A program made the position numbers and the translations under genes. The notes under the pieces were generated by a model, which saw only the letters and a program-made list of their open reading frames with translations, was not told the DNA's origin and did no database searches. Shown here in pieces: positions 4,929 to 47,359 of a DNA stretch of 64,000 nucleotides. Positions within the stretch are counted from its first letter, which is position 1. The number at the start of each line of letters is the position of its first letter. Source of the stretch: a virus (Duplodnaviria > Caudoviricetes); the IMG/VR virus record IMGVR_UViG_2706796291_000001, positions 32,001 through 96,000 of that record; one strand, written 5' to 3'.

Positions 4929-6710
4929 GTGGTAAAATGGATACAAAAGAAAACAAAAATTGAAGCAGATAGAGAAGATGATTTAAAAACAAGAATTTTA
5001 AAGGCAAGGGGGATTCCTCTCGAAGACCATCAAGAGTTTCTGTTTCCTGATGAGAAGTGGGAGAATCATCCTTTTGAAATCCGCAATGTAGAAAAAGCTG
5101 TCAATCGTATATTAGAAGGCATTGCAGACAAAGAAACAATTGTAATAAGTGGAGACCCTGATGCAGATGGAATCACAGCAACAGCTATTATGTTCAATCG
5201 ACTGAAAGCACTACAAGATTTTAATGAGTTCAACCTAGATTATATCTACCCACAACGTGATACGGGGCATGGACTATATGGTCAATTGTCGGTTCAAGAC
5301 CATTGGCTAAACAAAGCAGAGAAAGCAAAGGTTGAAAAAGATAAAGAAAGTCTTGCTAAGTGGGAAAAACTTATTAACCTTAGTCGCTCAAACATCGAGA
5401 AGACAAAGATAGCTGACCTCCTTATTATTTTAGATAGTTCGAGTAACGACTTAAAAGGTGTTGAACGTGCTCGAACATTAAATCCTGATTTGGATATCAT
5501 CATCCTAGACCACCATGAATTTGACTCTAAAGAAATTATGGATGAAATGGATAAAGAAGTTATCTTATGTAATCCTCACCATCGTTTAGATGAATCAATC
5601 AATAAAGATTTGTCAGGGGCTGGTATGGCTTATAAAGTAGCAAAAGGCATTGATGATGTCTTAGATGATGATGGATTTTCTAATCAGTTCCGTGACCTAG
5701 TTGCAATTGGTCTTGTAGGGGATATGATGAGTGTTCTTAATTTTGAGAATCGTTACCTTATCTCACAAGGATTACAAAATGTTAATAACATTGGTTTATC
5801 ACGAATCCTTAAAGGTGCTAAAATTAATACATACCGATACAATACAAAAGATATTGGATATAGTATTGCACCATTAATTAACTCATCTGCTCGTATGGGA
5901 GAAATTGAACTTGCTTTTCAAATCTTAATGGTAGATAATGATACTGACGCTAAGAAGCTTCGACTTAAAATGGATAAACTGAATAAAAAACGTCAAGAAA
6001 CTCAAAAAGCAGTCATGCAAAAATATGAAGATAATCAAAATATGGAAGACAAGATTATTATTGTTATTGATTCAGAGTCAAATAAAGGTATGAACGGTTT
6101 AGTAGCTCAGAATATCGCTCAAAAATACCATCGCCCATGTTTCGTTGTGACAGAAGGTAAAGATGGAATCTGTCGCGGTTCAGGTCGTTCGTATGGTAGT
6201 TTTAATACAAATGAGTTTCTAAGTGAATTAGATTTTGTGGAAGCACAGGGACATGGACAAGCTCATGGATTGAATTTTCCTCTTGACCGATTAGATGATT
6301 TGAAAGAATACATCGAGGATAACATGCCAGACAATCTTGAAACAGAAAGAACGTTCTATTACGATGTTGAATTGAAAAATGTTGAAGAAGCATTTATGGA
6401 TTTAACTGATTTAATCAATATCAACTACATTACAGGTAATAACTTTCCAGAAGTTGTAGTACGTATAAATAATGTTATGATTGAGGAACGTGCAGTTATT
6501 GGTAAAACAAAAGAAACAGTCAAATTTAAAACAAGTGGAGATTTAGTCTTTATTAAGTTTAAAGTTAATGAGGAATGGAATGAGGATATTGATACATTCG
6601 ATACTGTCAGTGTTGTAGGAAATGGAACAATCAATGAGTTCTACAATTTTTCAACAAAAGAAATGACACGAACACCTCAAATTATTATTATGGATATTGT
6701 AAAGGAATAA
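4929..6710 (+). CDS. recJ: RecJ-like DHH ssDNA exonuclease
   Basis: GDPDADG, ILDHH, GSGRS, GHGQAHG. Confidence 0.9.
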   Translation: MVKWIQKKTKIEADREDDLKTRILKARGIPLEDHQEFLFPDEKWENHPFEIRNVEKAVNRILEGIADKETIVISGDPDADGITATAIMFNRLKALQDFNEFNLDYIYPQRDTGHGLYGQLSVQDHWLNKAEKAKVEKDKESLAKWEKLINLSRSNIEKTKIADLLIILDSSSNDLKGVERARTLNPDLDIIILDHHEFDSKEIMDEMDKEVILCNPHHRLDESINKDLSGAGMAYKVAKGIDDVLDDDGFSNQFRDLVAIGLVGDMMSVLNFENRYLISQGLQNVNNIGLSRILKGAKINTYRYNTKDIGYSIAPLINSSARMGEIELAFQILMVDNDTDAKKLRLKMDKLNKKRQETQKAVMQKYEDNQNMEDKIIIVIDSESNKGMNGLVAQNIAQKYHRPCFVVTEGKDGICRGSGRSYGSFNTNEFLSELDFVEAQGHGQAHGLNFPLDRLDDLKEYIEDNMPDNLETERTFYYDVELKNVEEAFMDLTDLININYITGNNFPEVVVRINNVMIEERAVIGKTKETVKFKTSGDLVFIKFKVNEEWNEDIDTFDTVSVVGNGTINEFYNFSTKEMTRTPQIIIMDIVKE

Positions 6711-6717
6711 ATTAAAA

Positions 6718-7257
6718 ATGAAAAATACAACTAAAAAAATTATTATGACAGTTATGGTTATTGCAGGAATCTTTGGTTCAGCAACTTTTGGGGCTTATGC
6801 GGCTAATGCATGGGCAGGACATCAAAATATGGTTGCTGTGCAACAGAATATCTCTATCTTGAAACAACGCTTACTAGACCGAAACGAACAGCTTAAACAG
6901 GCGAATAATAACTCACAGCAATATGAAAAACGATTGAATCAATTGAATGACCAAATTAATCAGTTAAAAGACCAAATTAATCAAGCTGATTCTGTAAACC
7001 AACAACTTCAAGGTCAACTTAAAAATAAAGATGCTGATTATCAAAATCAATTAAACTCACTTAATCAGCAAAAAGAAGAAGTTATTCGACAATTAAATCA
7101 AGCAAACAAAGATAAGGAAAGCATGACACAACAGATTAGTGATTTGAATGCAAAATTAACTGTCGCTCAACAAAAAACTGACGAATTATCACAAGCAGTA
7201 ACTGATGCACAACAGACTAAAGACTTATCAGATAGAGCTGTCAACGAAACGAAGTGA
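6718..7257 (+). CDS. Exported/membrane-anchored Gln-rich coiled-coil protein
   Basis: Signal-peptide-like N-terminus followed by heptad repeats. Confidence 0.6.
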   Translation: MKNTTKKIIMTVMVIAGIFGSATFGAYAANAWAGHQNMVAVQQNISILKQRLLDRNEQLKQANNNSQQYEKRLNQLNDQINQLKDQINQADSVNQQLQGQLKNKDADYQNQLNSLNQQKEEVIRQLNQANKDKESMTQQISDLNAKLTVAQQKTDELSQAVTDAQQTKDLSDRAVNETK

Positions 7258-16733: not shown

Positions 16734-16806
16734 GGTTCTTTAGCTTAACTGGTAAAGCCCTTCGCTCATAACGGAGTAAGTGCAGGTTCGAGTCCTGCAA
16801 GAACCA
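16734..16806 (+). tRNA. tRNA-Met/Ile2 (CAT), CCA not encoded
   Basis: Cloverleaf GGTTCTT...AAGAACC-A, loop CTCATAA, T-loop TTCGAGT. Confidence 0.9.
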
Positions 16807-16854
16807 TTCCCAAAAGGGAAAATAGAAAGATAGACAGAAAGAGAGGTACTAACC

Positions 16855-17085
16855 ATGATTTTAAAATATGGAGTAAGTAACGGTAAAGGAGAAACAGTTG
16901 TTCACATTACAGACAACATCACAGATGTAGAAGAAATTGAAGGTAGTAATTCACCAATCTTCCACCATCACAATGGAGATAAACCTCGGACATATTTCGG
17001 CAATCTTAAAGAGAATGAATATATTATCTTTATGTATTTAATGAATGATGAATTTAAAACAATTAAGATTTATAAAAGGGCTTAA
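16855..17085 (+). CDS. Hypothetical protein
   Basis: GAGGT RBS; YLMNDEFKTI motif. Confidence 0.6.
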   Translation: MILKYGVSNGKGETVVHITDNITDVEEIEGSNSPIFHHHNGDKPRTYFGNLKENEYIIFMYLMNDEFKTIKIYKRA

Positions 17086-17086
17086 T

Positions 17087-17509
17087 ATGAAAATAAACGT
17101 AAATGAACTAAAAACATTGTTTAAACTTGGAGAATATGTTGTATTAGTTCCGAAACAGGGAAGTGATTATCGTTCCTTTCTTCGTGAGATGACTGATGAA
17201 ATCTATTGGGAAAATAATATGTGGAATGACTGGGATACAGTCTATGATAGAGTTGAACTAATTAAAATATGGTCTAATGGTGGGAAAGAAGCTATTGAAT
17301 TAAAACCAGCAACATTTCTCCGTGTTACAGAACCCTATACTATGGAAGCTCTTGAAATTTATGGACATAAATCAAACTTTAAATATGTTATCTTGAATGA
17401 TGGCGACATCGAACTGGTTGAAACATCAGAACTCGATAAAGTATATGATATCTTTTTTAAGCCTCTTCAAGCGCTAGAAAATGCACGCTTTGAAATCTTA
17501 GGAGATTGA
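17087..17509 (+). CDS. Hypothetical protein
   Basis: Tiled ORF. Confidence 0.6.
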   Translation: MKINVNELKTLFKLGEYVVLVPKQGSDYRSFLREMTDEIYWENNMWNDWDTVYDRVELIKIWSNGGKEAIELKPATFLRVTEPYTMEALEIYGHKSNFKYVILNDGDIELVETSELDKVYDIFFKPLQALENARFEILGD

Positions 17510-17510
17510 T

Positions 17511-17873
17511 ATGAAGAAAAGAATTAAACACGAGGTTATCTTTAGCTCTAAAGAGGTTAAAGAGATAACAGGATTTGAATTAAAAAATAAATGGGGAGTT
17601 TTCTATTTTGAACAAGATGGACATGAACCTATTTGGGAAACATCCGATGTTACAGACGAAGAAGAATTTAACAAAGATTTCGGAATGTGTATGGATGAAA
17701 TAGAAAGAATTTTGAGAGATTATGTTAGTAAAAATTTCCTTGGAGACTTTTACTTTGTAGTACAAAAGGGTAGTATTCATTATAGAACATCTAGTTATAC
17801 CTCTCAATTTCATTCTAATAATAATAGTGAAATATTCTTTTATTATGAGGATAGAGATACTATGGAGGTTTAA
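17511..17873 (+). CDS. Hypothetical protein
   Basis: AGGAG RBS. Confidence 0.6.
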   Translation: MKKRIKHEVIFSSKEVKEITGFELKNKWGVFYFEQDGHEPIWETSDVTDEEEFNKDFGMCMDEIERILRDYVSKNFLGDFYFVVQKGSIHYRTSSYTSQFHSNNNSEIFFYYEDRDTMEV

Positions 17874-17875
17874 AC

Positions 17876-18121
17876 ATGAATTTAAAAATTAAAATTAAAG
17901 TGTCTTATTCAAGATATGATATGGATGATTTTAATGATGGTAGCAAGATTTACTTCATAGTTGAAATACCAATGAATTATATTAAAGATAAAAATAAACT
18001 GATAGAGAACATATCTAATTTTTGTAGTGAAACAGCAAGAAATTTGCTTATTGCAAATGATATTGAGTTTAGAGAGTATATGATTCGGACTGAGTTCTTA
18101 GAAAAATCAATGCCAGTATAA
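17876..18121 (+). CDS. Hypothetical protein
   Basis: GGAGG RBS. Confidence 0.6.
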   Translation: MNLKIKIKVSYSRYDMDDFNDGSKIYFIVEIPMNYIKDKNKLIENISNFCSETARNLLIANDIEFREYMIRTEFLEKSMPV

Positions 18122-18146
18122 AAAATTAAAAAATTCAACTTTATCC

Positions 18147-18175
18147 TTGACATTATATCTGAAATATGATATAAT
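18147..18175 (+). promoter_or_regulatory. Sigma-A promoter (HNH, tRNA-Arg, tmRNA)
   Basis: TTGACA-17-TATAAT. Confidence 0.85.
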
Positions 18176-18207
18176 ATTAATATAGTCAAGTGAGAGAGGT
18201 TGATTGA

Positions 18208-18801
18208 ATGAAGGAAATTGATTCAAAAGAGTTCTTTCCTCTTAAAAGATATGAAGGTTTTTATGAAATCAACACTAATGGAGACATTCGTTCTGTAGAT
18301 AGAATAATAACAACCAAAGGGTATAATGGAAAAGGTTCTTATGCTTCTCATCAAAAGGGAGTTCTAAGGAAGAGTTATCAAAATGGTAGTGGTTATCTTC
18401 AAATTAAATTGTACATAAATGGTAAGGAATATCAGGAATATGTACACCGTCTTGTTTATGATACTTTCATCGGTATTAAAGATAAGAAAAATGACATAGA
18501 CCACTTAGACCATAACAAATTAAATTGTTCATTGGAAAATTTAGAGGAAATAACTCATAAAGAAAATATGAGAAGAATGCGTAAATTCTATGGCATAGAA
18601 GCTAGACCTAAAGAAAAGAAAAGTCGAAGAACTTATACATACGATGAAATGAAAAAAGTTCTTGAAAGACTCAGAACTGAACCTATGAGTAAAGTCTGTA
18701 AAGATTATGGACTTTCTGACAAAGGTTTATCTAAAAGACTTAAGAGTGTCGGTCTTCCATATCAAATGAAGGAAATAAATAAATACTTTAATAACAACTG
18801 A
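18208..18801 (+). CDS. NUMOD4-HNH homing endonuclease
   Basis: YEGFYEINTNGDIRS; VHRLV...IDHLDHNKLNCSLENLE...EN. Confidence 0.85.
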   Translation: MKEIDSKEFFPLKRYEGFYEINTNGDIRSVDRIITTKGYNGKGSYASHQKGVLRKSYQNGSGYLQIKLYINGKEYQEYVHRLVYDTFIGIKDKKNDIDHLDHNKLNCSLENLEEITHKENMRRMRKFYGIEARPKEKKSRRTYTYDEMKKVLERLRTEPMSKVCKDYGLSDKGLSKRLKSVGLPYQMKEINKYFNNN

Positions 18802-18816
18802 TTCTAGTTGTTATCT

Positions 18817-18889
18817 GCTCGGTTGGTGAAGCTGGATATCACACAGAATTTCTAATTCTGTATCAAGGGTTCAAATCCCTTACTGAGTA
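18817..18889 (+). tRNA. tRNA-Arg (TCT)
   Basis: GCTCGGT/ACTGAGT, CAGAA-TTTCTAA-TTCTG, AAGGG-TTCAAAT-CCCTT. Confidence 0.9.
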
Positions 18890-18926
18890 TATCAAGTTAA
18901 TCTTGATTGATTTCTTTATTAGATTA

Positions 18927-19017
18927 AATAAAGTGGTGGAGGTACAGATGAATCTGTAACGTACACATGGGTTGGGGGTACGGTAAGTGTTGTGGCTTAT
19001 CGCTCAACCATTTTATT
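18927..19017 (+). ncRNA. Unnamed four-way-junction RNA
   Basis: Closing stem aataaagtggt/accattttatt enclosing three hairpins. Confidence 0.5.
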
Positions 19018-19019
19018 AA

Positions 19020-19364
19020 GGGGATGTAAAGGTTTCGACAGACTATGGCAGTCTTAAATCACATTCCGACAAGGACAGTCGTTAAAACCAAACTAAATAT
19101 AATTGCAAACACTCAATTAGCCGTAGCCTAAGCTACAAAAAAGTTTAAGTAATTAAACAGCTAGAAACTGATTCGTCTGGTAGGTTTCTAGTACAAACAG
19201 ACGTGTGATGGATTCTGATAAGTCACAGATAACAATCAGAACAGCGTTAGTGGATAGTTGTTTATTCAAGAAACTAATAATGTCTATCAAATGAATAAAC
19301 TATGAATGTAAGAAAGTTTAAGATATGTATAGTTTGGACGCGGATTCGATTTCCGCCATTTCCA
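19020..19364 (+). ncRNA. ssrA: tmRNA; tag (A)ANTQLAVA* at 19105-19131
   Basis: 5' GGGGATGTAAAGGTTTCGAC, G3-U acceptor, ataattGCA resume context, 3' GGACGCGGATTCGATTTCCGCCATTTCCA. Confidence 0.9.
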
Positions 19365-19406
19365 TCATGTTTTTAAAACATATTTAAAAAACATATTACT
19401 TTATAC

Positions 19407-29818: not shown

Positions 29819-32320
29819 ATGGAAAATTTATTTGTTATTAAGAAAAGAACAGATGAGAAACAAGAAAGGGTGACGGAAGAATGGAACTTCGATAAGGTAA
29901 TTTCTGCCTGTCAAAAGTCAGCCCAACACATAGACAAACCTCTAACTAAAGAACAAATCGCTGAGATTAAATCCTTAGTAGAACTTGCCATTGTCAAACG
30001 TAGAGATGGTATTTTAGCTGATACAAGTGTGCAACATGAAGATAAACTTCATTACATTAATGTTCGTGAAATTCATGATATTGTTTTGTCGGCTCTTAAA
30101 CAAGTTGATGCTGATATATATGATTCATATCATGAATATCGAAACTATAAAATATCGCAAGATAAGCATTATCGTGAATTATATAAAGATTTGGATAGTC
30201 TTAAAAATGGAATTTACAATGAGAATGCAAACAAAGACAGCTCTATTAATTCAACTAAACGTTCTCTTCTTGCTGAAATGACTCAGAAGAAAATTGTGAC
30301 TGACTTTATTCTTCAAAAGAACTGGGCTAAGGCTCATGAAGAAGGATGGATTTACATTCATGATTTAGGAGATTTGTACTGGAGAAGTTTCAATTGTGAT
30401 AACGTTGATTTCGCAAATATCATTAAGACTAAAAAACAAAAGGATGGAGAGTATGCTTTTACTTTAAATGGTATTAAATATCCCGAACCTAAATCAATTA
30501 GTTCAGCTTTTAATTTAGTGGCGGATTTACTCCTCCAAGTCTCTAGCCAGCAGCACGGTGGACTGAGTGTTCAGAACTTTGACCATTTCCTAGCACCTTA
30601 TGCAGAATTAACTTATGATAAAGCATTCAAAAGATATATGGAAAAGGGAATTGCATATAATACAGCACGTGAAATGGCAGAAGAAGATACTCTTTATGCA
30701 ATCAAACAAGGTGTTCAAGGATTTGAACTTGAAATAAGTACTGTCTCTAATGCATTGGGGCAAATTCCATTTACATCAATTGGTTTTGGATTGGATACAT
30801 CTAAATGGGGTCGTGAAATTACTCGTGCTTTCTTGCTCGAACGTTCTGAGCCAGATTGTGTACTTGTCTTTCCTAAATTAATTTTTGCTAGTGCTAAAGA
30901 AGTTAACTTGAATCCTGATTCACCTAACTATGATTTATTCCAATTGGCTATCAAATGCAGTTCAACTAAACTATATCCTGACTACGTTTCAATGGATAAC
31001 GGTATTCTTGCACCTGCATACAGTCGTCATAAAGATGACTTAGACCAAATTTTATCAGTACCAATGGGGTGTCGCTCGTATAATAGCTTTGAATTTATTA
31101 ATCCTTTAGAGGATTCAGAAGACTTCCAAAAGGAAGTTTATAAAGGACGTGGAAATGTTGGTGTAGTAACAATTAATTTCCCTAAAATTGCCATAGAATC
31201 AGGTGGTAACTGGAATACATTCTATGAATTACTACATAAATATACCAATATGACGATGGATATCTTAGATTGGAGATATAATTATGCTGGAGAAGCTAGA
31301 GCAGAAAGCAATCCTCTAATGTGGATGGAAGGTGGTGCATGGAGACGACTCAATCATGATGAAAAAATCTCTAAAACAATCTTTAATTTTTCTTCATCTA
31401 TTGGATTGATTGGATTCAACGAAACTTTGAATTATATGTATTTAAATAATGGATATGAAATTAATAACTTACCAGATTATAAAAAAGGTGGTCAACGTCA
31501 ACAAGACCAAATGAAATTAATGGAAGTCCTTAATTCAATTAAAGAATTTAGAAATATCCATGACGCTGTTCGTATTGATGAAGATGGTGTTCAAACTCGT
31601 GTTTGGGATGAAGAAGGAAACTTTGTTCACCCAGACCCAGACAAGAAATACCTTGAAGTTTATGAAGGCTTAGACACAACACACAAAACAACTATTATAC
31701 CTCGTATGTATTCTATCTATGGAACACCTGCTGAATCTCTTGTGTATAAAACGATGAAACAATTACAAGAACAATATGGGTTTATTAATGGTGTTACAAC
31801 TCAAGAGGATGGAAAAGGACGTAATTATATTACTAATTCATTCCATCAGCCAGTATGGATAGAATCAAATGTCTTTGATAAGATTGACTTTGAAGCTCCT
31901 TTCCATTGGGATAAAATGGCAAGCGGTGGGCATATCAGTCAGAATGAATTTGCATATGGTACACCTGTAACAGTTCTTGAACAAGCTGTCCGTTATGCTA
32001 TGGAGAAAGGGATGTACTATGGCATCAATATTGCATCTAGTCATTGCTTTGATTGTGGATGGAATGGAGAAACAGCAGACACTTGTGCTGAGTGTGGTTC
32101 AAGCAATGTGGTAACAATAAATAGAATCTGTGGATATCTGTCTATTACATCACGTAATGGACATAGTGTTGTCAATTCTGGGAAAACAGAAGAATTACTA
32201 GAACGTGTTAATCACGTTGGAAATTCTAAAAAAGAATATACTAAAAACTTTGAGAAAAAACATGACATACAAAGAGATGTTGTATCGAAAGAGTTCTCAA
32301 TGTTTGAATCAGGAGAGTAA
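29819..32320 (+). CDS. nrdD: Class III anaerobic ribonucleotide reductase
   Basis: ATP cone, IYIHDL, FPKL, MGCRS, TPAESL, YITNSFH, RICGYL. Confidence 0.95.
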   Translation: MENLFVIKKRTDEKQERVTEEWNFDKVISACQKSAQHIDKPLTKEQIAEIKSLVELAIVKRRDGILADTSVQHEDKLHYINVREIHDIVLSALKQVDADIYDSYHEYRNYKISQDKHYRELYKDLDSLKNGIYNENANKDSSINSTKRSLLAEMTQKKIVTDFILQKNWAKAHEEGWIYIHDLGDLYWRSFNCDNVDFANIIKTKKQKDGEYAFTLNGIKYPEPKSISSAFNLVADLLLQVSSQQHGGLSVQNFDHFLAPYAELTYDKAFKRYMEKGIAYNTAREMAEEDTLYAIKQGVQGFELEISTVSNALGQIPFTSIGFGLDTSKWGREITRAFLLERSEPDCVLVFPKLIFASAKEVNLNPDSPNYDLFQLAIKCSSTKLYPDYVSMDNGILAPAYSRHKDDLDQILSVPMGCRSYNSFEFINPLEDSEDFQKEVYKGRGNVGVVTINFPKIAIESGGNWNTFYELLHKYTNMTMDILDWRYNYAGEARAESNPLMWMEGGAWRRLNHDEKISKTIFNFSSSIGLIGFNETLNYMYLNNGYEINNLPDYKKGGQRQQDQMKLMEVLNSIKEFRNIHDAVRIDEDGVQTRVWDEEGNFVHPDPDKKYLEVYEGLDTTHKTTIIPRMYSIYGTPAESLVYKTMKQLQEQYGFINGVTTQEDGKGRNYITNSFHQPVWIESNVFDKIDFEAPFHWDKMASGGHISQNEFAYGTPVTVLEQAVRYAMEKGMYYGINIASSHCFDCGWNGETADTCAECGSSNVVTINRICGYLSITSRNGHSVVNSGKTEELLERVNHVGNSKKEYTKNFEKKHDIQRDVVSKEFSMFESGE

Positions 32321-36362: not shown

Positions 36363-38552
36363 TTGACAGTCACAAAGATTGAAACAAAAGAATCAGTAAC
36401 ACCAGAGTATTTTATGCTCAACAACCAACTAAATATCGTTAAAGACGGTAAAATTCAGTTGAACGCAGACAGAGAAGCTGTCCATAGCTATTTCATTGAT
36501 TACGTAAACCCTCATACAGTCTATTTTGGAGACTTACGTGAGAAGCTTGACTATTTAGTGAAACACAAGTATATTAAAGGCGAAGTACTTGATAAATATA
36601 CTTTCAAATTTATTAAAAAATTATTTAAAACTTTGTACAACAAGAAATTTCGATTTACAACTTTCATGGGTGCTTATAAATTTTACACACAGTATGCTAT
36701 GCGCACTACAGATAACAAGTCAATTCTTGAACGATATGAAGACCGCATTGCTTTTAATGCCTTAGTTATGGCTGATGGTGACGAACAATTGGCTCTTAAC
36801 ATTGCGCATGAAATGATTTCACAAACCTATCAACCTGCAACACCAACATTCTCTAATGCTGGTAAGTTGCGTGGTGGTAATGCTGTATCATGTTTCCTTT
36901 TGAATATTGAAGATAATATGACGTCTATTGGGCGCTCAGTAAATTCAGTTCTTCAATTGTCTAAAATGGGTGGTGGAGTTGGAATCAACTTAACTGATAT
37001 CCGTCCGTCAGGAGACCCTATCAAGGGTATTGAGAATATGGCTGATGGAGTTGTTCCAATCATGAAACTCTATGAAGATTCATTTTCATATGCCAATCAG
37101 TTGGGGACAAGAAATGGGGCAGGAGTAACTTATCTCAATGTATTCCATAAAGATATTGTTAAATTCCTCTCTACAAAAAAAGAAAATGCTGACGAAAAAG
37201 TTCGTGTTAAAACTCTTTCTCTCGGTGTTGTAGTTCCTGATAAATTCTATGAACTCATTGCTAAAGGTGAATCAATGTATTTGTTTAGCCCTTATGATAT
37301 CTACAATGAGTATGGAAAACTAATGTCTGAAATCAACATCACAGAAATGTATGATGAATTAGTTGAAAACAAAAATATCAAGAAAGATAAAATCTTTGCT
37401 CGTGACCTTGAAGAAGAAATGTCTAAACTTATTCAAGAATCAGGATATCCATACATCATCAACATTGATACAGCAAACCAAGAAAATGCTGTTGACGGTG
37501 TAATTAAAATGTCTAACCTTTGTTCTGAAATCCTTCAAGTACAATCTCCATCAGAATTGAACTCAGACCAAACTTATAAGACTATTGGAACTGACGTATC
37601 ATGTAACCTTGGTTCAACTAATATTACACATCTTATGGAGTCATCTGACTTCGGAAGCTCTGTTAGAACAGCATTTCGTGCATTAACCTATGTTGCAGAT
37701 AGCTCTAACATTGAAGAAGTTCCTACTGTTAAGAACGCCAACGATAAGTATCACTCAGTAGGGCTAGGGGCAATGGGACTACATGGATTCCTTGCTAAAA
37801 ATGGTATTCTCTATGGTTCTCCTGAATCAATTGAGTTCACAGGTATGTACTTCCAACTCCTAAACTACTGGACTCTATTTGAAAGTAATCGAATTGCTAT
37901 TGAACGCAATCAATCTTTCTATAACTTTGATAAATCAGAATATGCCAATGGTAAATACTTCAAACGCTATCTACCACGTGTTAAATTCAAAAATAATCTT
38001 TCTGATACAGTCAAAGAATTGTTTAAAGATGTTGATATTCCAACTGCACAAGATTGGGTTGACCTACAAGCTTCAATCGAAGAACATGGTCTATATAACT
38101 CTTACCGTTTAGCTGTTGCACCTACAGGTTCAATTTCTTATGTAAATGAAGCAACTGCTTCTATTCACCCAATCGTACAAAAGATTGAGAAGCGTTCAGA
38201 AGGTAAACGTGGTGATGTGTTCTATCCAGCACCTTATCTTGCAGAAGGTCTTCCTTATTATGAATCAGCTTATAATATTGACCAACGTAGAGTTATTGAT
38301 ATTTATGCCGAAGCTCAGAAACATGTTGACCAATCTCTATCTATGACTTTATTCATGAATGCAGACCACGGAAAAGATTTGTATGAGTGGAAAATAGGAA
38401 GCAAAGGAGAAGATTCATTCACTACTCGTGACATTAATATTCTTCGAAATTATGCTTGGTCAAAAAAAATAAAATCAATTTACTATGTTCGTACCTACAG
38501 AGGGGACGGTGAAGTAAGTTCTGTGAACGAGTGTGAGTCATGCTCAATCTAA
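36363..38552 (+). CDS. nrdE: Class Ib RNR alpha subunit
   Basis: QPATPTF, SCFL, SNLCSE, APTGSIS, YYVR, CESCSI. Confidence 0.95.
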   Translation: MTVTKIETKESVTPEYFMLNNQLNIVKDGKIQLNADREAVHSYFIDYVNPHTVYFGDLREKLDYLVKHKYIKGEVLDKYTFKFIKKLFKTLYNKKFRFTTFMGAYKFYTQYAMRTTDNKSILERYEDRIAFNALVMADGDEQLALNIAHEMISQTYQPATPTFSNAGKLRGGNAVSCFLLNIEDNMTSIGRSVNSVLQLSKMGGGVGINLTDIRPSGDPIKGIENMADGVVPIMKLYEDSFSYANQLGTRNGAGVTYLNVFHKDIVKFLSTKKENADEKVRVKTLSLGVVVPDKFYELIAKGESMYLFSPYDIYNEYGKLMSEINITEMYDELVENKNIKKDKIFARDLEEEMSKLIQESGYPYIINIDTANQENAVDGVIKMSNLCSEILQVQSPSELNSDQTYKTIGTDVSCNLGSTNITHLMESSDFGSSVRTAFRALTYVADSSNIEEVPTVKNANDKYHSVGLGAMGLHGFLAKNGILYGSPESIEFTGMYFQLLNYWTLFESNRIAIERNQSFYNFDKSEYANGKYFKRYLPRVKFKNNLSDTVKELFKDVDIPTAQDWVDLQASIEEHGLYNSYRLAVAPTGSISYVNEATASIHPIVQKIEKRSEGKRGDVFYPAPYLAEGLPYYESAYNIDQRRVIDIYAEAQKHVDQSLSMTLFMNADHGKDLYEWKIGSKGEDSFTTRDINILRNYAWSKKIKSIYYVRTYRGDGEVSSVNECESCSI

Positions 38553-42811: not shown

Positions 42812-45232
42812 ATGTCAAAAGTAAAATTAGTAAAAGCTGTGAATTGGAATCGGCTGGAAGATAACATTGACCGTGCAACTTGGGATAAATTGATTTCGCA
42901 GTTCTGGGTCAGCTCACGTGTACCCGTTTCAAATGACATGGGAGATTGGGGTAAATTGTCTGCCCCAGAGAAAGATTTGTTCAATAAAGTTTTTGGAGGG
43001 TTGACACTACTTGATACTTTGCAGGGTGAAGTCGGTAACAATGAGATTGCAAAAGATTCTCGTACTCAACATGAACTGGCTGTGTTCAGGAACATCTCAT
43101 TTATGGAAGAGATAGAAAGCATTGTTTCTTTAGCTTAAAGAAATTTAAGCTTGGTAAAACCTATCTAAACAGGGGAACTCTGACCGTGTAAGACGAAGAC
43201 AATCCTGTACTAAATTTATTGAAAGGAGACAAAATTGAAAATAATTGGAAGTAGAACTTATGAAAATATTTTATATAAAAGAATCTTTACTATACATAAA
43301 GGTATGCTAGGGCGGTGTTACAATCCTAATGATACAAGTTATTCTACGTATGGTGCTAAAGGTGTTACAGTTGATGAACATTGGCACAATCTTGATAATT
43401 TTATCGAAGATATTGATAAAATCGATGGGTTTGATTACAATAAGTTCATTAAAGCTGAGATTCAACTTGATAAAGATTTTAAACAAATTGGTGTTAAAAA
43501 TAAAGTATATTCATTAAATACATGTGTATTTTTAAGTCGTTCTGATAATTGTGGGAATAGAAATAACAATCAAGATATGATTATCATTGACCCTGACGGT
43601 AATAAATATGAATCACGTAATCGTGAAAAATTCTGTCGTGAACATAACTTAGACACACGTCATGCACATGCAGTTCTACAAGGTAAAAATCCACACCACA
43701 AAGGTTGGCAATTTTTCTATAAAGAAACATTCAATCCAGCAAATGTTGTACTTAAACAAATCATACTTGGTACAAATTCAGATGGCGATGAATTTTTGTT
43801 TAATAATATATCAACATTTGCTAAGGAACAGAATCTTTCTGCCCCAAATATTTCAATGGTTTTGTCTGGTAAAAATAAAACTCACAAAGGATGGACTTTT
43901 AAAATTATCCAAAAGGGTTTTACTATTCAATAATAAATGTGCAACGACTATCGAAAGGATAGCATTTCTCACAGTATAATTCTAGGGGAGATGTGAATAA
44001 CCAAGTAGAGTAGAGTTTAAGTAAACTCGAAATGGTAGGACATATCATTTACTTAAAAGTATGATATGTAAGATATAGTCTGAACTATATAGAAATATAT
44101 AGAGTGTGAGTAACGAACACACACAACAGCATTGACATGCGGAATCTTATTCAACAATCTTCTCAACTTTCTGTACTATGAAAGAGATTGATGGAATATT
44201 TGAGTGGACTGCAACAAATCCTTATATTGTTAAGAAAACAGAAATCGTTCAAGATATCTACGAAAATGGAACTCCTCTACAAAAGAAAATTGCATCAGTA
44301 TTCTTGGAATCCTTCCTTTTCTACTCAGGATTCTTTACACCCTTGTATTATGCTGGACTCGGAAAGATGAAAAATACAGCCGAGATTATAAAATTAATTT
44401 TGAGGGATGAGTCGGTTTTGTAAGTGAGCTGACTTAGGTATTTTGCCTTAGCGAAACCACAATCCTAAACAGGGAAACTCTCTCGCAGACAATCCTGTGT
44501 TAAATTATTGTAAAAACCTTTTGATAAACTCTTTATCTTTTTTAAGATGATGAAGATTGGGAGTTTATCAAAAAGGAAGAAGTACAATATAAAGACTCAA
44601 CGACTATCGAAAGGCAGTTAATAGCTCTAGGGGCTATTAATGAAACCAAGTAGAGTACAGCCAAGTGGTAAGCAATGTATGTGAAAATGGCATGCAGATA
44701 AGTCTTTTAAATGGAAATGGAGTATGTGGGGTGTTGACTAACAACAACACTAAGATATAGTCTCAGCGTCCATAGTGATATGGAGAAGTTCATCAGAGAA
44801 CTGCGTAGAATTTACGACTCTATGTGAAGGTACTATCACGGATATTACATCGGCTACAAGTTTCAAATTGGATATAATGAATTAACAGAAGCTGAACAAG
44901 AAGAGTTAGAAGAATGGACATTTGATTTACTTGATAAGCTCTATCAAAATGAATTGAAATACACTGAACTTCTTTATGATGAAGTAGGTTATACTGAGGA
45001 TGTGAAACAATTCCTCAAATACAACGCAGACAAAGCTCTTATGAATCTTGGATTCGACACCTTGTTTGAAGTTGGACGTGAAGATATCAATCCACTTGTA
45101 ATGAATGGTATCTCAACTGAAACAGCTAACCATGATTTCTTCTCAGCGGTAGGTAATGGATATCTCCTTGGAGAAGTCGAAGCTATGAAAGACGATGACT
45201 ACGCTTTGATTAAAGAAAAACTCAATAAATAA
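42812..45232 (+). CDS. nrdF: Class Ib RNR beta subunit, join(42812-43113,44135-44416,44836-45232), 326 aa
   Basis: Splicing restores FMEEIHAESYS and LRDESVHGYYIG; 302+282+397=981 nt in frame; C-terminal HDFFSAVGNGY. Confidence 0.92.
43114..44134 (+). mobile_element. Group I intron 1 of nrdF, carries an endonuclease gene
   Basis: P1 aagagaT/Gtttctt; AAACAGGGGAA/AATCCTGT; P7 GACTA/TAGTC; ends in G. Confidence 0.9.
43235..43933 (+). CDS. Intron-encoded HNH-like homing endonuclease with two NUMOD1-like repeats
   Basis: GMLGRCYNP..Y..YG.KGV.V, LDKD, 2x F..E.NL....VL.GK...HKGW.F. Confidence 0.75.
   Translation: MKIIGSRTYENILYKRIFTIHKGMLGRCYNPNDTSYSTYGAKGVTVDEHWHNLDNFIEDIDKIDGFDYNKFIKAEIQLDKDFKQIGVKNKVYSLNTCVFLSRSDNCGNRNNNQDMIIIDPDGNKYESRNREKFCREHNLDTRHAHAVLQGKNPHHKGWQFFYKETFNPANVVLKQIILGTNSDGDEFLFNNISTFAKEQNLSAPNISMVLSGKNKTHKGWTFKIIQKGFTIQ
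44417..44835 (+). mobile_element. Group I intron 2 of nrdF, ORF-less, terminal A
   Basis: P1 gagtcggT/Gctgactt; P10 gtga/tcac; AAACAGGGAA/AATCCTGT; P7 GACTA/TAGTC. Confidence 0.85.
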
Positions 45233-46179: not shown

Positions 46180-46455
46180 ATGGAAGCAATTGATGTTGAA
46201 TTTACTATAGGTGTTGATGAAGACTGGGATGAAAAATTCCGATTGTTAACAATGAATTGTTATTACGATTTTGATATTTCTCAAAAACTAGAAATGCTTG
46301 ATGCTATTCGCAAAGGGCTTATTGAAGAAGAAATCCGCAAAGTAACAAACATTATTAATACTCTGCATCACTCAACACATAACTCTGATGAATTAACAAA
46401 ACTCATTGAGGTGCAAACAAAATTATTAGAAGGATTAAAAAATAATGGAAATTAA
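46180..46455 (+). CDS. Hypothetical protein
   Basis: AAAGGA RBS. Confidence 0.6.
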   Translation: MEAIDVEFTIGVDEDWDEKFRLLTMNCYYDFDISQKLEMLDAIRKGLIEEEIRKVTNIINTLHHSTHNSDELTKLIEVQTKLLEGLKNNGN

Positions 46456-47359
46456 AGATGTAGTAATTATTGGTGGTGGAGTCGCAGGTACAACTGTGAC
46501 TTTATATCTTGCTCGTGCAGGATTCGAACCTGTCTTATTGACAGATGGTGAAATTGGTGGGAATCTTAATTCTATTGATACCATTCAAAATTACGTTGGA
46601 ATTTATAACGCAAAAGGTAATAATATTGCAGAAGCAATTTACACTCAACTTTATCAAGCTGGAATCATCAATAATGTTAAAGAAGATACAAAAGTAACTA
46701 ATGTTTCCAAAGATAAGAATGGTATTTATCTGATTACATATGAAAACCTCCTAGGTGCTGAGGATACTATTCTATCTAAAAACCTTGTCATTGCAACAGG
46801 TCAACACAATCTCAAACTTCCAATTGATGTAGAACAACACAACTGTGTTTTGTGTGATGGTTTTATGTTTAAAGGTGAACCAGTAGTTGTAATTGGTGGC
46901 GGAAATTCTGCTTTAACAGAAGCAATCGAACTAGCTAAAACATCAAGTAAAGTTTATCTCGTTACTCGTAAACCAGAGTTTCGTGCAGAACAACATTTAC
47001 AAAATGAAATTAAAAAATATGATAACATTGTTCACTCAGTAGGTAATCTTAAATCTGTAATTGGAGATTCATATATCTTCGATACTCATACTATTATTGC
47101 AAAAGGATTATTTGTTTACATTGGTTCAAGACCTAATACACAGTTTATGGAAGACGAATTAATTCTAACAGATAGTGGACACATTGATACAATAGGATAC
47201 AATGCTTTGGTTGGTGTTAAGGGTAGTCGTCATATGGATATTGACCGTAATTTATATGTTGTTGGAGATGTTAATGGCACGGTTGAAGCAAAGCAATTTG
47301 GTATTGCTATTGGTCAAGCCACAGAAGTCGCAGTTCGACTTATTAAAAAATTGTCATAA
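46445..47359 (+). CDS. trxB: Thioredoxin reductase
   Basis: IIGGGVAG, IATG, CVLCDG, VIGGGNSA, VVGD. Confidence 0.9.
   Translation: MEIKDVVIIGGGVAGTTVTLYLARAGFEPVLLTDGEIGGNLNSIDTIQNYVGIYNAKGNNIAEAIYTQLYQAGIINNVKEDTKVTNVSKDKNGIYLITYENLLGAEDTILSKNLVIATGQHNLKLPIDVEQHNCVLCDGFMFKGEPVVVIGGGNSALTEAIELAKTSSKVYLVTRKPEFRAEQHLQNEIKKYDNIVHSVGNLKSVIGDSYIFDTHTIIAKGLFVYIGSRPNTQFMEDELILTDSGHIDTIGYNALVGVKGSRHMDIDRNLYVVGDVNGTVEAKQFGIAIGQATEVAVRLIKKLS

Follow-up and report, generated by a model that had tools for sequence, protein, structure and literature searches.

A group I intron that ends in adenosine instead of the usual terminal guanosine (omega-G) was identified in the nrdF gene of a dairy phage. It is probably a working, immobile intron of type IA2 in which adenosine has taken the place of the terminal guanosine (omega-A). 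The intron occupies positions 44417 to 44835 of the window, the stretch of 64,000 nucleotides analyzed here, which is part of a 130,008-bp virus record (IMG/VR IMGVR_UViG_2706796291_000001, positions 32,001 to 96,000). The window region shares 99.4 to 99.7% identity with Lactococcus phages AM1-AM12 and LW81 of the 949 group (genus Audreyjarvisvirus) and 95% identity with phage P1048. Four independent criteria applied to the sequence, namely reading frame, P10, P9.0 and homology, agree in predicting A44835 as the last base of the intron.

The split nrdF gene

The nrdF gene encodes the small subunit of class Ib ribonucleotide reductase (RNR). In the window this single gene is distributed over three short open reading frames (ORFs) at 42812-43138, 44178-44423 and 44954-45232, and in the public records of related phages the pieces are annotated as separate proteins, some of them misleadingly named. 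The exons were delimited as follows.

42812-43113, plus strand: nrdF exon 1, codons 1 to 100 plus 2 nt; PF00268 positions 2-94; junction set by the continuity of FMEE/IHAESYS
44135-44416, plus strand: nrdF exon 2, ending in ...RDES plus gt; PF00268 positions 95-193; PDB 4n83 residues 100-192
44836-45232, plus strand: nrdF exon 3, in which t completes the Val codon, followed by HGYYIGYK... to the stop; PF00268 positions 195-280; 4n83 residues 194-315

Joining 43113 to 44135 and 44416 to 44836 yielded a 981-nt ORF for a 326-amino-acid NrdF that contains ...RDESVHGYY.... The match to PF00268 was full length across the three exons, and the best relative in PDB was the NrdF 4n83. Both ExxH metal motifs (EEIH...SY and ESVH), the radical tyrosine motif and all metal ligands were present in the spliced protein.

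Structure of the intron

The following features of the intron were mapped.

44417-44835, plus strand: group I intron, IA2 type, without an ORF, 419 nt; RF00028, helices P1 to P9.2 mapped
44411-44433, plus strand: P1 hairpin of 8 bp (44411-18 with 44426-33), with the splice-site wobble U44416.G44428 in the RF00028 alignment
44424-44427, plus strand: P10 guide bases GUGA, immediately 5' of the guide G, forming 4 contiguous Watson-Crick pairs with UCAC of exon 3 (44836-44839), about -3.5 kcal/mol
44513-44582, plus strand: peripheral stem-loop extending P6, the place of the endonuclease gene in the Enterococcus phage orthologue (aligned after excision of about 690 nt from the Enterococcus introns)
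44600-44607, plus strand: 5' strand of P7, with the guanosine-binding pair G44602-C44762, bulged C44601 and A44600-U44763
44757-44766, plus strand: 3' strand of P7 (44757-63) plus A44765 and G44766 of J7/9, which form P9.0 with C44833 and U44834
44835, plus strand: omega position, A; the homologous column is G in Enterococcus and Brochothrix phages

The RF00028 alignment covered 44407-44785 and the full length of the model (1-253), with 36.2 bits and an E value of 6e-7, which falls short of the gathering threshold of 50. Such subthreshold scores are frequent among phage IA2 introns that have long insertions, and a low score alone therefore does not exclude membership in group I. The helices mapped were P1, P2, P3, P4, P5, P6, P7, P7.1, P7.2, P8, P9, P9.1, P9.2, P9.0 and P10. 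An in-frame TAA stop is located at 44421-23, just inside the intron.

Covariation was assessed in an alignment of the 3' halves (P7 to P9.2) of eight introns. Pairing was found in 99.1% of the cells, and 22 of the 48 pairs had compensatory changes. None of 500 shuffles reached the score, and slid partners paired in only 28 to 48% of cases. Compensatory changes were also present in P3, P4, P5 and P6. The guanosine pocket in P7 was invariant in all eight introns, irrespective of whether they end in A or G. Helices P7.1 (44618-26 with 44632-40) and P7.2 (44676-82 with 44690-96), both of which covary, lie between P7 and P3', and we take the intron to be IA2 rather than IA1.

Predicted position of the 3' splice site

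Exon 2 ends in ...gag tcg gt at 44416, and exon 3 opens with tcac at 44836. The PF00268 match stops at 193 and resumes at 195, and the 4n83 match stops at 192 and resumes at 194, indicating that exactly one residue is needed at the junction. Only two joins yield E-S-V-H, one with U44416 and A44835 as the last bases of exon 2 and of the intron, and the other with U44417 and U44836. The join at A44835 produces the junction codon GUU (Val) and restores ExxH. The two base pairs of P9.0 were 100% paired in the alignment, and the second, G-C here, is replaced by A-U in the Enterococcus phages. At the aligned position of A44835, every Enterococcus and Brochothrix copy has G, and the intron end there reads ...G/ACAU (the slash marks the junction).

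No G near the 3' end gives an in-frame ExxH, and the intron thus departs from the terminal guanosine that serves as a criterion for group I introns. However, members without omega-G have been published, which makes a terminal G near-universal rather than strictly defining. A last nucleotide other than G, with the rest of the core intact, is the trait that natural introns lacking omega-G share, and it was found here.

These results agree with an earlier note on this sequence, made from the letters and their ORFs. The note had placed the U.G splice pair of P1 after GAG TCG GT, which is where the RF00028 alignment pairs U44416 with G44428, and had read a P10 between GTGA and TCAC, which corresponds to the four Watson-Crick pairs of 44424-27 with 44836-39. 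Its description of P7 as canonical fits the pairs and the bulge listed above. The restoration of RDESVHG in a 326-amino-acid NrdF, which it had also claimed, was corroborated by the 981-nt ORF and by the one-residue gap in both the Pfam and the 4n83 matches. That the last base is A is supported by the G in the homologous column of the relatives and by P9.0, which points to A44835.

Introns at the same site and the length of P10

Introns with the same insertion point, after ...GAG TCG GU, and the same P1 occur in Enterococcus phages of the genus Kochikohdavirus (Carl, vB_EfaH_149, LG1 and others) and in Brochothrix phages A9 and ADU4. None of them is annotated as an intron in the records consulted. 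Their J6/7, P7 and J8/7 are identical to those of the Lactococcus intron, and they share P7.1, P7.2, P8, P9, P9.1 and P9.2, with 76 to 80% identity over the 3' half. The Enterococcus copies have an endonuclease ORF in P6 and are without P2. Unlike the Lactococcus intron, the Enterococcus and Brochothrix introns end in G, and the first base of the downstream exon is A. P10 also differs, with 4 bp in the Lactococcus omega-A intron versus 2 bp in Enterococcus and 1 bp in Brochothrix. The extra pairs in Lactococcus come from two synonymous exon changes (A to U at +1 and U to C at +4) together with changes in the guide sequence.

The conserved 3' domain of the omega-A intron was found in more than 100 phage introns of IMG/VR, and nearly all readable tails end in G. 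In one set, an intron with this 3' domain splits the gene for the terminase large subunit just before the Walker-B strand.

L063, about 2481-2884 in plus coordinates, minus strand: terminase intron, omega-A, no usable G, P10 of 4 bp
L101, about 5730-6990: terminase intron, omega-A, no usable G, P10 of 8 bp
L064, about 1890-2298: terminase intron at the same site, omega-G, P10 of 1 bp

As far as this small, independent set allows, the terminase introns point the same way as those in nrdF, namely to a longer P10 with omega-A. When a phage database was searched for cultured counterparts of the omega-A terminase intron, only related cores in other genes came up. Introns with the same 3' domain were also seen at the very end of a gene in L033, L070 and L109 (also in L062, L086 and L112). 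In all of these the upstream ORF terminates where the intron begins and no long downstream exon follows, and the 3' splice sites therefore cannot be placed.

Further orthologues at the nrdF site were sought in four ways. A pattern search based on P1 gave chance matches only. A search with the P7/J7-7.1 motif found other introns, and none in nrdF beyond the P1048 and A9 copies. With the P7.1-7.2 linker motif, no nrdF intron was found among the metagenome matches listed or the new viral matches screened. In a protein search of IMG/VR with exon 3, 77 of 80 relatives were intronless at the omega-A site.

Conservation of the terminal A

When related phages were checked for A44835, as the earlier note had proposed, 15 Lactococcus phage records representing 11 genomes were 100% identical over 44812-44849. 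A sequencing error or a private mutation is ruled out by these identical records. The A-bearing genomes include P1048, whose nrdF differs from that of the window at 67 of 981 nt and whose intron is 97% identical. The ratio of nonsynonymous to synonymous divergence (dN/dS) between the two nrdF genes was 0.088, at a synonymous divergence (dS) of 0.29. For exon 3 alone the ratio was 0.053, with 17 synonymous and 3 nonsynonymous codon changes (P = 3e-8 versus neutrality). On either side of the omega-A intron dN/dS was 0.05 to 0.11, and the spliced ORFs were intact in all A-bearing lineages.

The introns of the window and P1048 have 12 differences, of which 6 are in the 70-nt P6 extension and 6 in the other 349 nt. 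Of the six core differences, four preserve pairing and one opens a terminal pair; the sixth lies in a loop. As judged from these comparisons, both the NrdF protein and the ribozyme core are under selection in the lineages that share the terminal A. A dead intron is hard to reconcile with selection on both.

Proposed splicing mechanism

The intron most likely still splices, and ligation is predicted at A44835/U44836. Omega-A and omega-G orthologues do not differ in their catalytic core, and the first step should therefore use free guanosine as usual. In this step, guanosine bound in the unchanged G-C pocket of P7 would attack after U44416. In the second step, the 3' splice site would be set by P9.0 and the 4-bp P10 rather than mainly by base-specific binding of omega. 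Pairing of A44765 and G44766 with C44833 and U44834 in P9.0, together with P10, would place A44835 in or beside the guanosine pocket. Exon ligation between A44835 and U44836 would then give the GUU codon, the ExxH motif and the 326-amino-acid NrdF. We infer from the alignments that P9.0 and the longer P10 compensate for the A. The omega-G relatives probably ligate their exons faster, and the idea that slow ligation tunes RNR output is speculation.

Several points weigh against a functional omega-A intron. Replacement of the terminal G by A in the Tetrahymena ribozyme is a strong impediment to the ligation of its exons. A compensating change of the pocket from G-C to A-U was sought in P7 of the eight introns and was absent. 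The case for splicing is drawn from comparison of sequences, and the relation between P10 length and the terminal base comes from a small sample covering two sites, with three introns of the omega-A and three of the omega-G kind. Between the lineages of the window and P1048, the nrdF intron has diverged by only 2.9%, against an exon dS of 0.29; with such low divergence, part of the purifying signal could predate the A if the intron was recently transferred between lineages. The flank in exon 3, however, is at normal divergence from P1048 within 16 nt of the junction, which speaks against recent transfer. Finally, the frame breaks in the nrdF of phage phiL47, described below, may mean that nrdF is dispensable in this phage group, or they may be sequencing errors.

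Comparison with known introns

The earlier note had called omega-A rare and had named a Coxiella burnetii precedent. This fits the literature: the title of a paper on the C. burnetii 23S rRNA intron lacking omega-G describes it as self-splicing (Raghavan et al. 2007, J Bacteriol 189:6572, cited in PMC5423948), and ND5-717 supplies a second precedent. The Coxiella intron resembles the one in nrdF as a natural group I intron of the bacterial world without a terminal G. It differs in sequence, to which that of nrdF is unrelated, and in its location in rRNA rather than in a phage protein gene. The ND5-717 intron of hexacoral and sea anemone mitochondria has A in place of the terminal G, as in nrdF. 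Its exons are perfectly ligated in vivo, with an efficiency below that of the neighboring omega-G intron (PMC6545197, PMC8146996), and its authors proposed a suppressive effect of omega-A on 3' hydrolysis and circularization (PMC8146996). Unlike the nrdF intron, ND5-717 is organellar, very large, gene-containing, strictly vertically inherited and probably dependent on host factors, and it has no omega-G orthologue at the same site for comparison.

The self-splicing IA2 introns of T4 td, nrdB and nrdD and of Staphylococcus phages Twort and K have the same P7.1 and P7.2 between P7 and P3'. Like the nrdF intron, the T4, Twort and K introns lie in conserved motifs of nucleotide metabolism genes and have an in-frame stop just inside the intron. 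To our knowledge, the T4, Twort and K IA2 introns end in G. The phiL47 paper and a survey of phage RNR (PMC3653736, PMC3888941), which provide background on such phage introns, mention RNR introns of the 949 group but not nrdF introns or their 3' ends.

Alternative explanations

Two other readings concern the splice sites themselves. A U follows both exon 2 and the intron, so that moving the 5' site to after U44417 and the 3' site to after U44836 also gives GGUUCAC, and P10 would still have 3 bp (44424-26 with 44837-39). Both registers produce the same messenger RNA, and the junction in complementary DNA therefore cannot tell omega-A from omega-U. This shift would nevertheless replace the conserved U.G wobble with a Watson-Crick U44417-A44427 pair and would abolish P9.0, whereas the RF00028 alignment and all orthologues put the 5' site after the U of ...TCGGU and the homologous omega column is 44835. 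We regard an omega-U register as very improbable. Omega could instead be one of the two G residues located 5 to 6 nt upstream of A44835, yielding a variant or truncated protein, perhaps through regulated alternative splicing; mutation of omega can lead to the use of cryptic G residues. Use of G44830, however, shifts the frame and use of G44829 puts two tyrosines (YY) into ExxH, as the earlier note had read from the sequence. Neither G is supported by P10 or P9.0, both align with the tail of the orthologous introns and not with omega, and the frame of exon 3 is under purifying selection. G44829 and G44830 were rejected as omega on frame, ExxH, P10 and P9.0, and the chance that either is the true omega is very small.

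The remaining readings accept the terminal A and differ in its consequence. The change from G to A may have crippled ligation, leaving nrdF nonfunctional or decaying while the phage uses the NrdF of its host. The second step should suffer without a terminal G, the pocket has no compensating change, nrdF of phiL47 contains frame breaks, and public annotations show nrdF only as fragments. Against this stand the low dN/dS upstream and downstream of the intron, the intact spliced ORFs of all A lineages, the retention of all metal ligands and the tyrosine motif, the pair-preserving substitutions in a conserved ribozyme core, the strengthening of P10 by synonymous exon changes and an intact nrdE; a loss of nrdF function is unlikely. 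Compatible with a functional omega-A intron, as an addition to it and not a different anatomy, is the view that omega-A is advantageous rather than merely tolerated. Suppression has been proposed for ND5-717 (PMC8146996), the nrdF intron has no endonuclease gene and the mobility reactions that depend on a terminal G are therefore useless to it, and all 11 genomes have the A. Neutral drift after P10 had been strengthened would, however, explain fixation within a single clade equally well, and an advantage is doubtful.

Other introns and genes

Two further features of the RNR genes were located in the window.

43114-44134, plus strand: nrdF intron 1, an ordinary omega-G intron (G44134); weak RF00028 match over the 3' part
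36885-38489, plus strand: nrdE, the large subunit and partner of NrdF; PF02867 at 511 bits within a 735-amino-acid stop-free frame, uninterrupted

Intron 1 contains an endonuclease ORF (43235-43933) of 232 amino acids with an I-HmuI NUMOD-like domain (PF22083). Intron 1 is absent from P1048, in which the omega-A intron alone interrupts nrdF. In phiL47 (contig L003, 2372-3351) nrdF has no intron at the omega-A site. A tblastn comparison spread the gene over three frames; of its two frame breaks, one falls at an A-run, and it is either a pseudogene or affected by a homopolymer sequencing error. The 949-like IMG/VR contig L447 (about 1380-1500) has a different nrdF intron, ending in G, about 11 nt downstream of the omega-A site. 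A second intron this close indicates that this short stretch of nrdF is a hot spot for introns.

The window ORF at 46445-47359 encodes a Pyr_redox_2 flavoprotein resembling thioredoxin reductase, and the records of related phages give this ORF the name of the large or alpha subunit of RNR; the true nrdE is the gene at 36885-38489. Rfam matches at 16734-20102 of the window comprised a phage transfer-messenger RNA (19020-19367), a skipping-rope RNA (19685-19763) and four clustered tRNAs.

Implications

The second step of group I splicing is held to need a terminal guanosine in every intron, and intron-mapping software and annotators depend on this base. The nrdF intron lacks it in a gene that is plainly kept working, and as a result 11 public genomes list nrdF only as fragments, some of them misnamed. 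The nrdF case does not alter what group I introns are, given the published precedents. Exceptions of this kind are rare but on record, and the omega-A intron of nrdF adds a new and well-controlled case. As a broader and tentative idea, terminal-G loss may be recurrent and selected in phage IA2 introns, with recognition of the 3' site moved from the pocket to a lengthened P10 plus P9.0. This is possible, though not what we would expect. If true, it would have given a 'domesticated' ribozyme that still ligates exons but has lost hydrolysis, circularization and reverse splicing. Natural controls are provided by the introns of Enterococcus and Brochothrix phages in the same codon, which have the same core, omega-G and a short P10. 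The pair of omega-A and omega-G introns in nrdF thus offers a clean system for determining how far P10 and P9.0 can replace guanosine binding.

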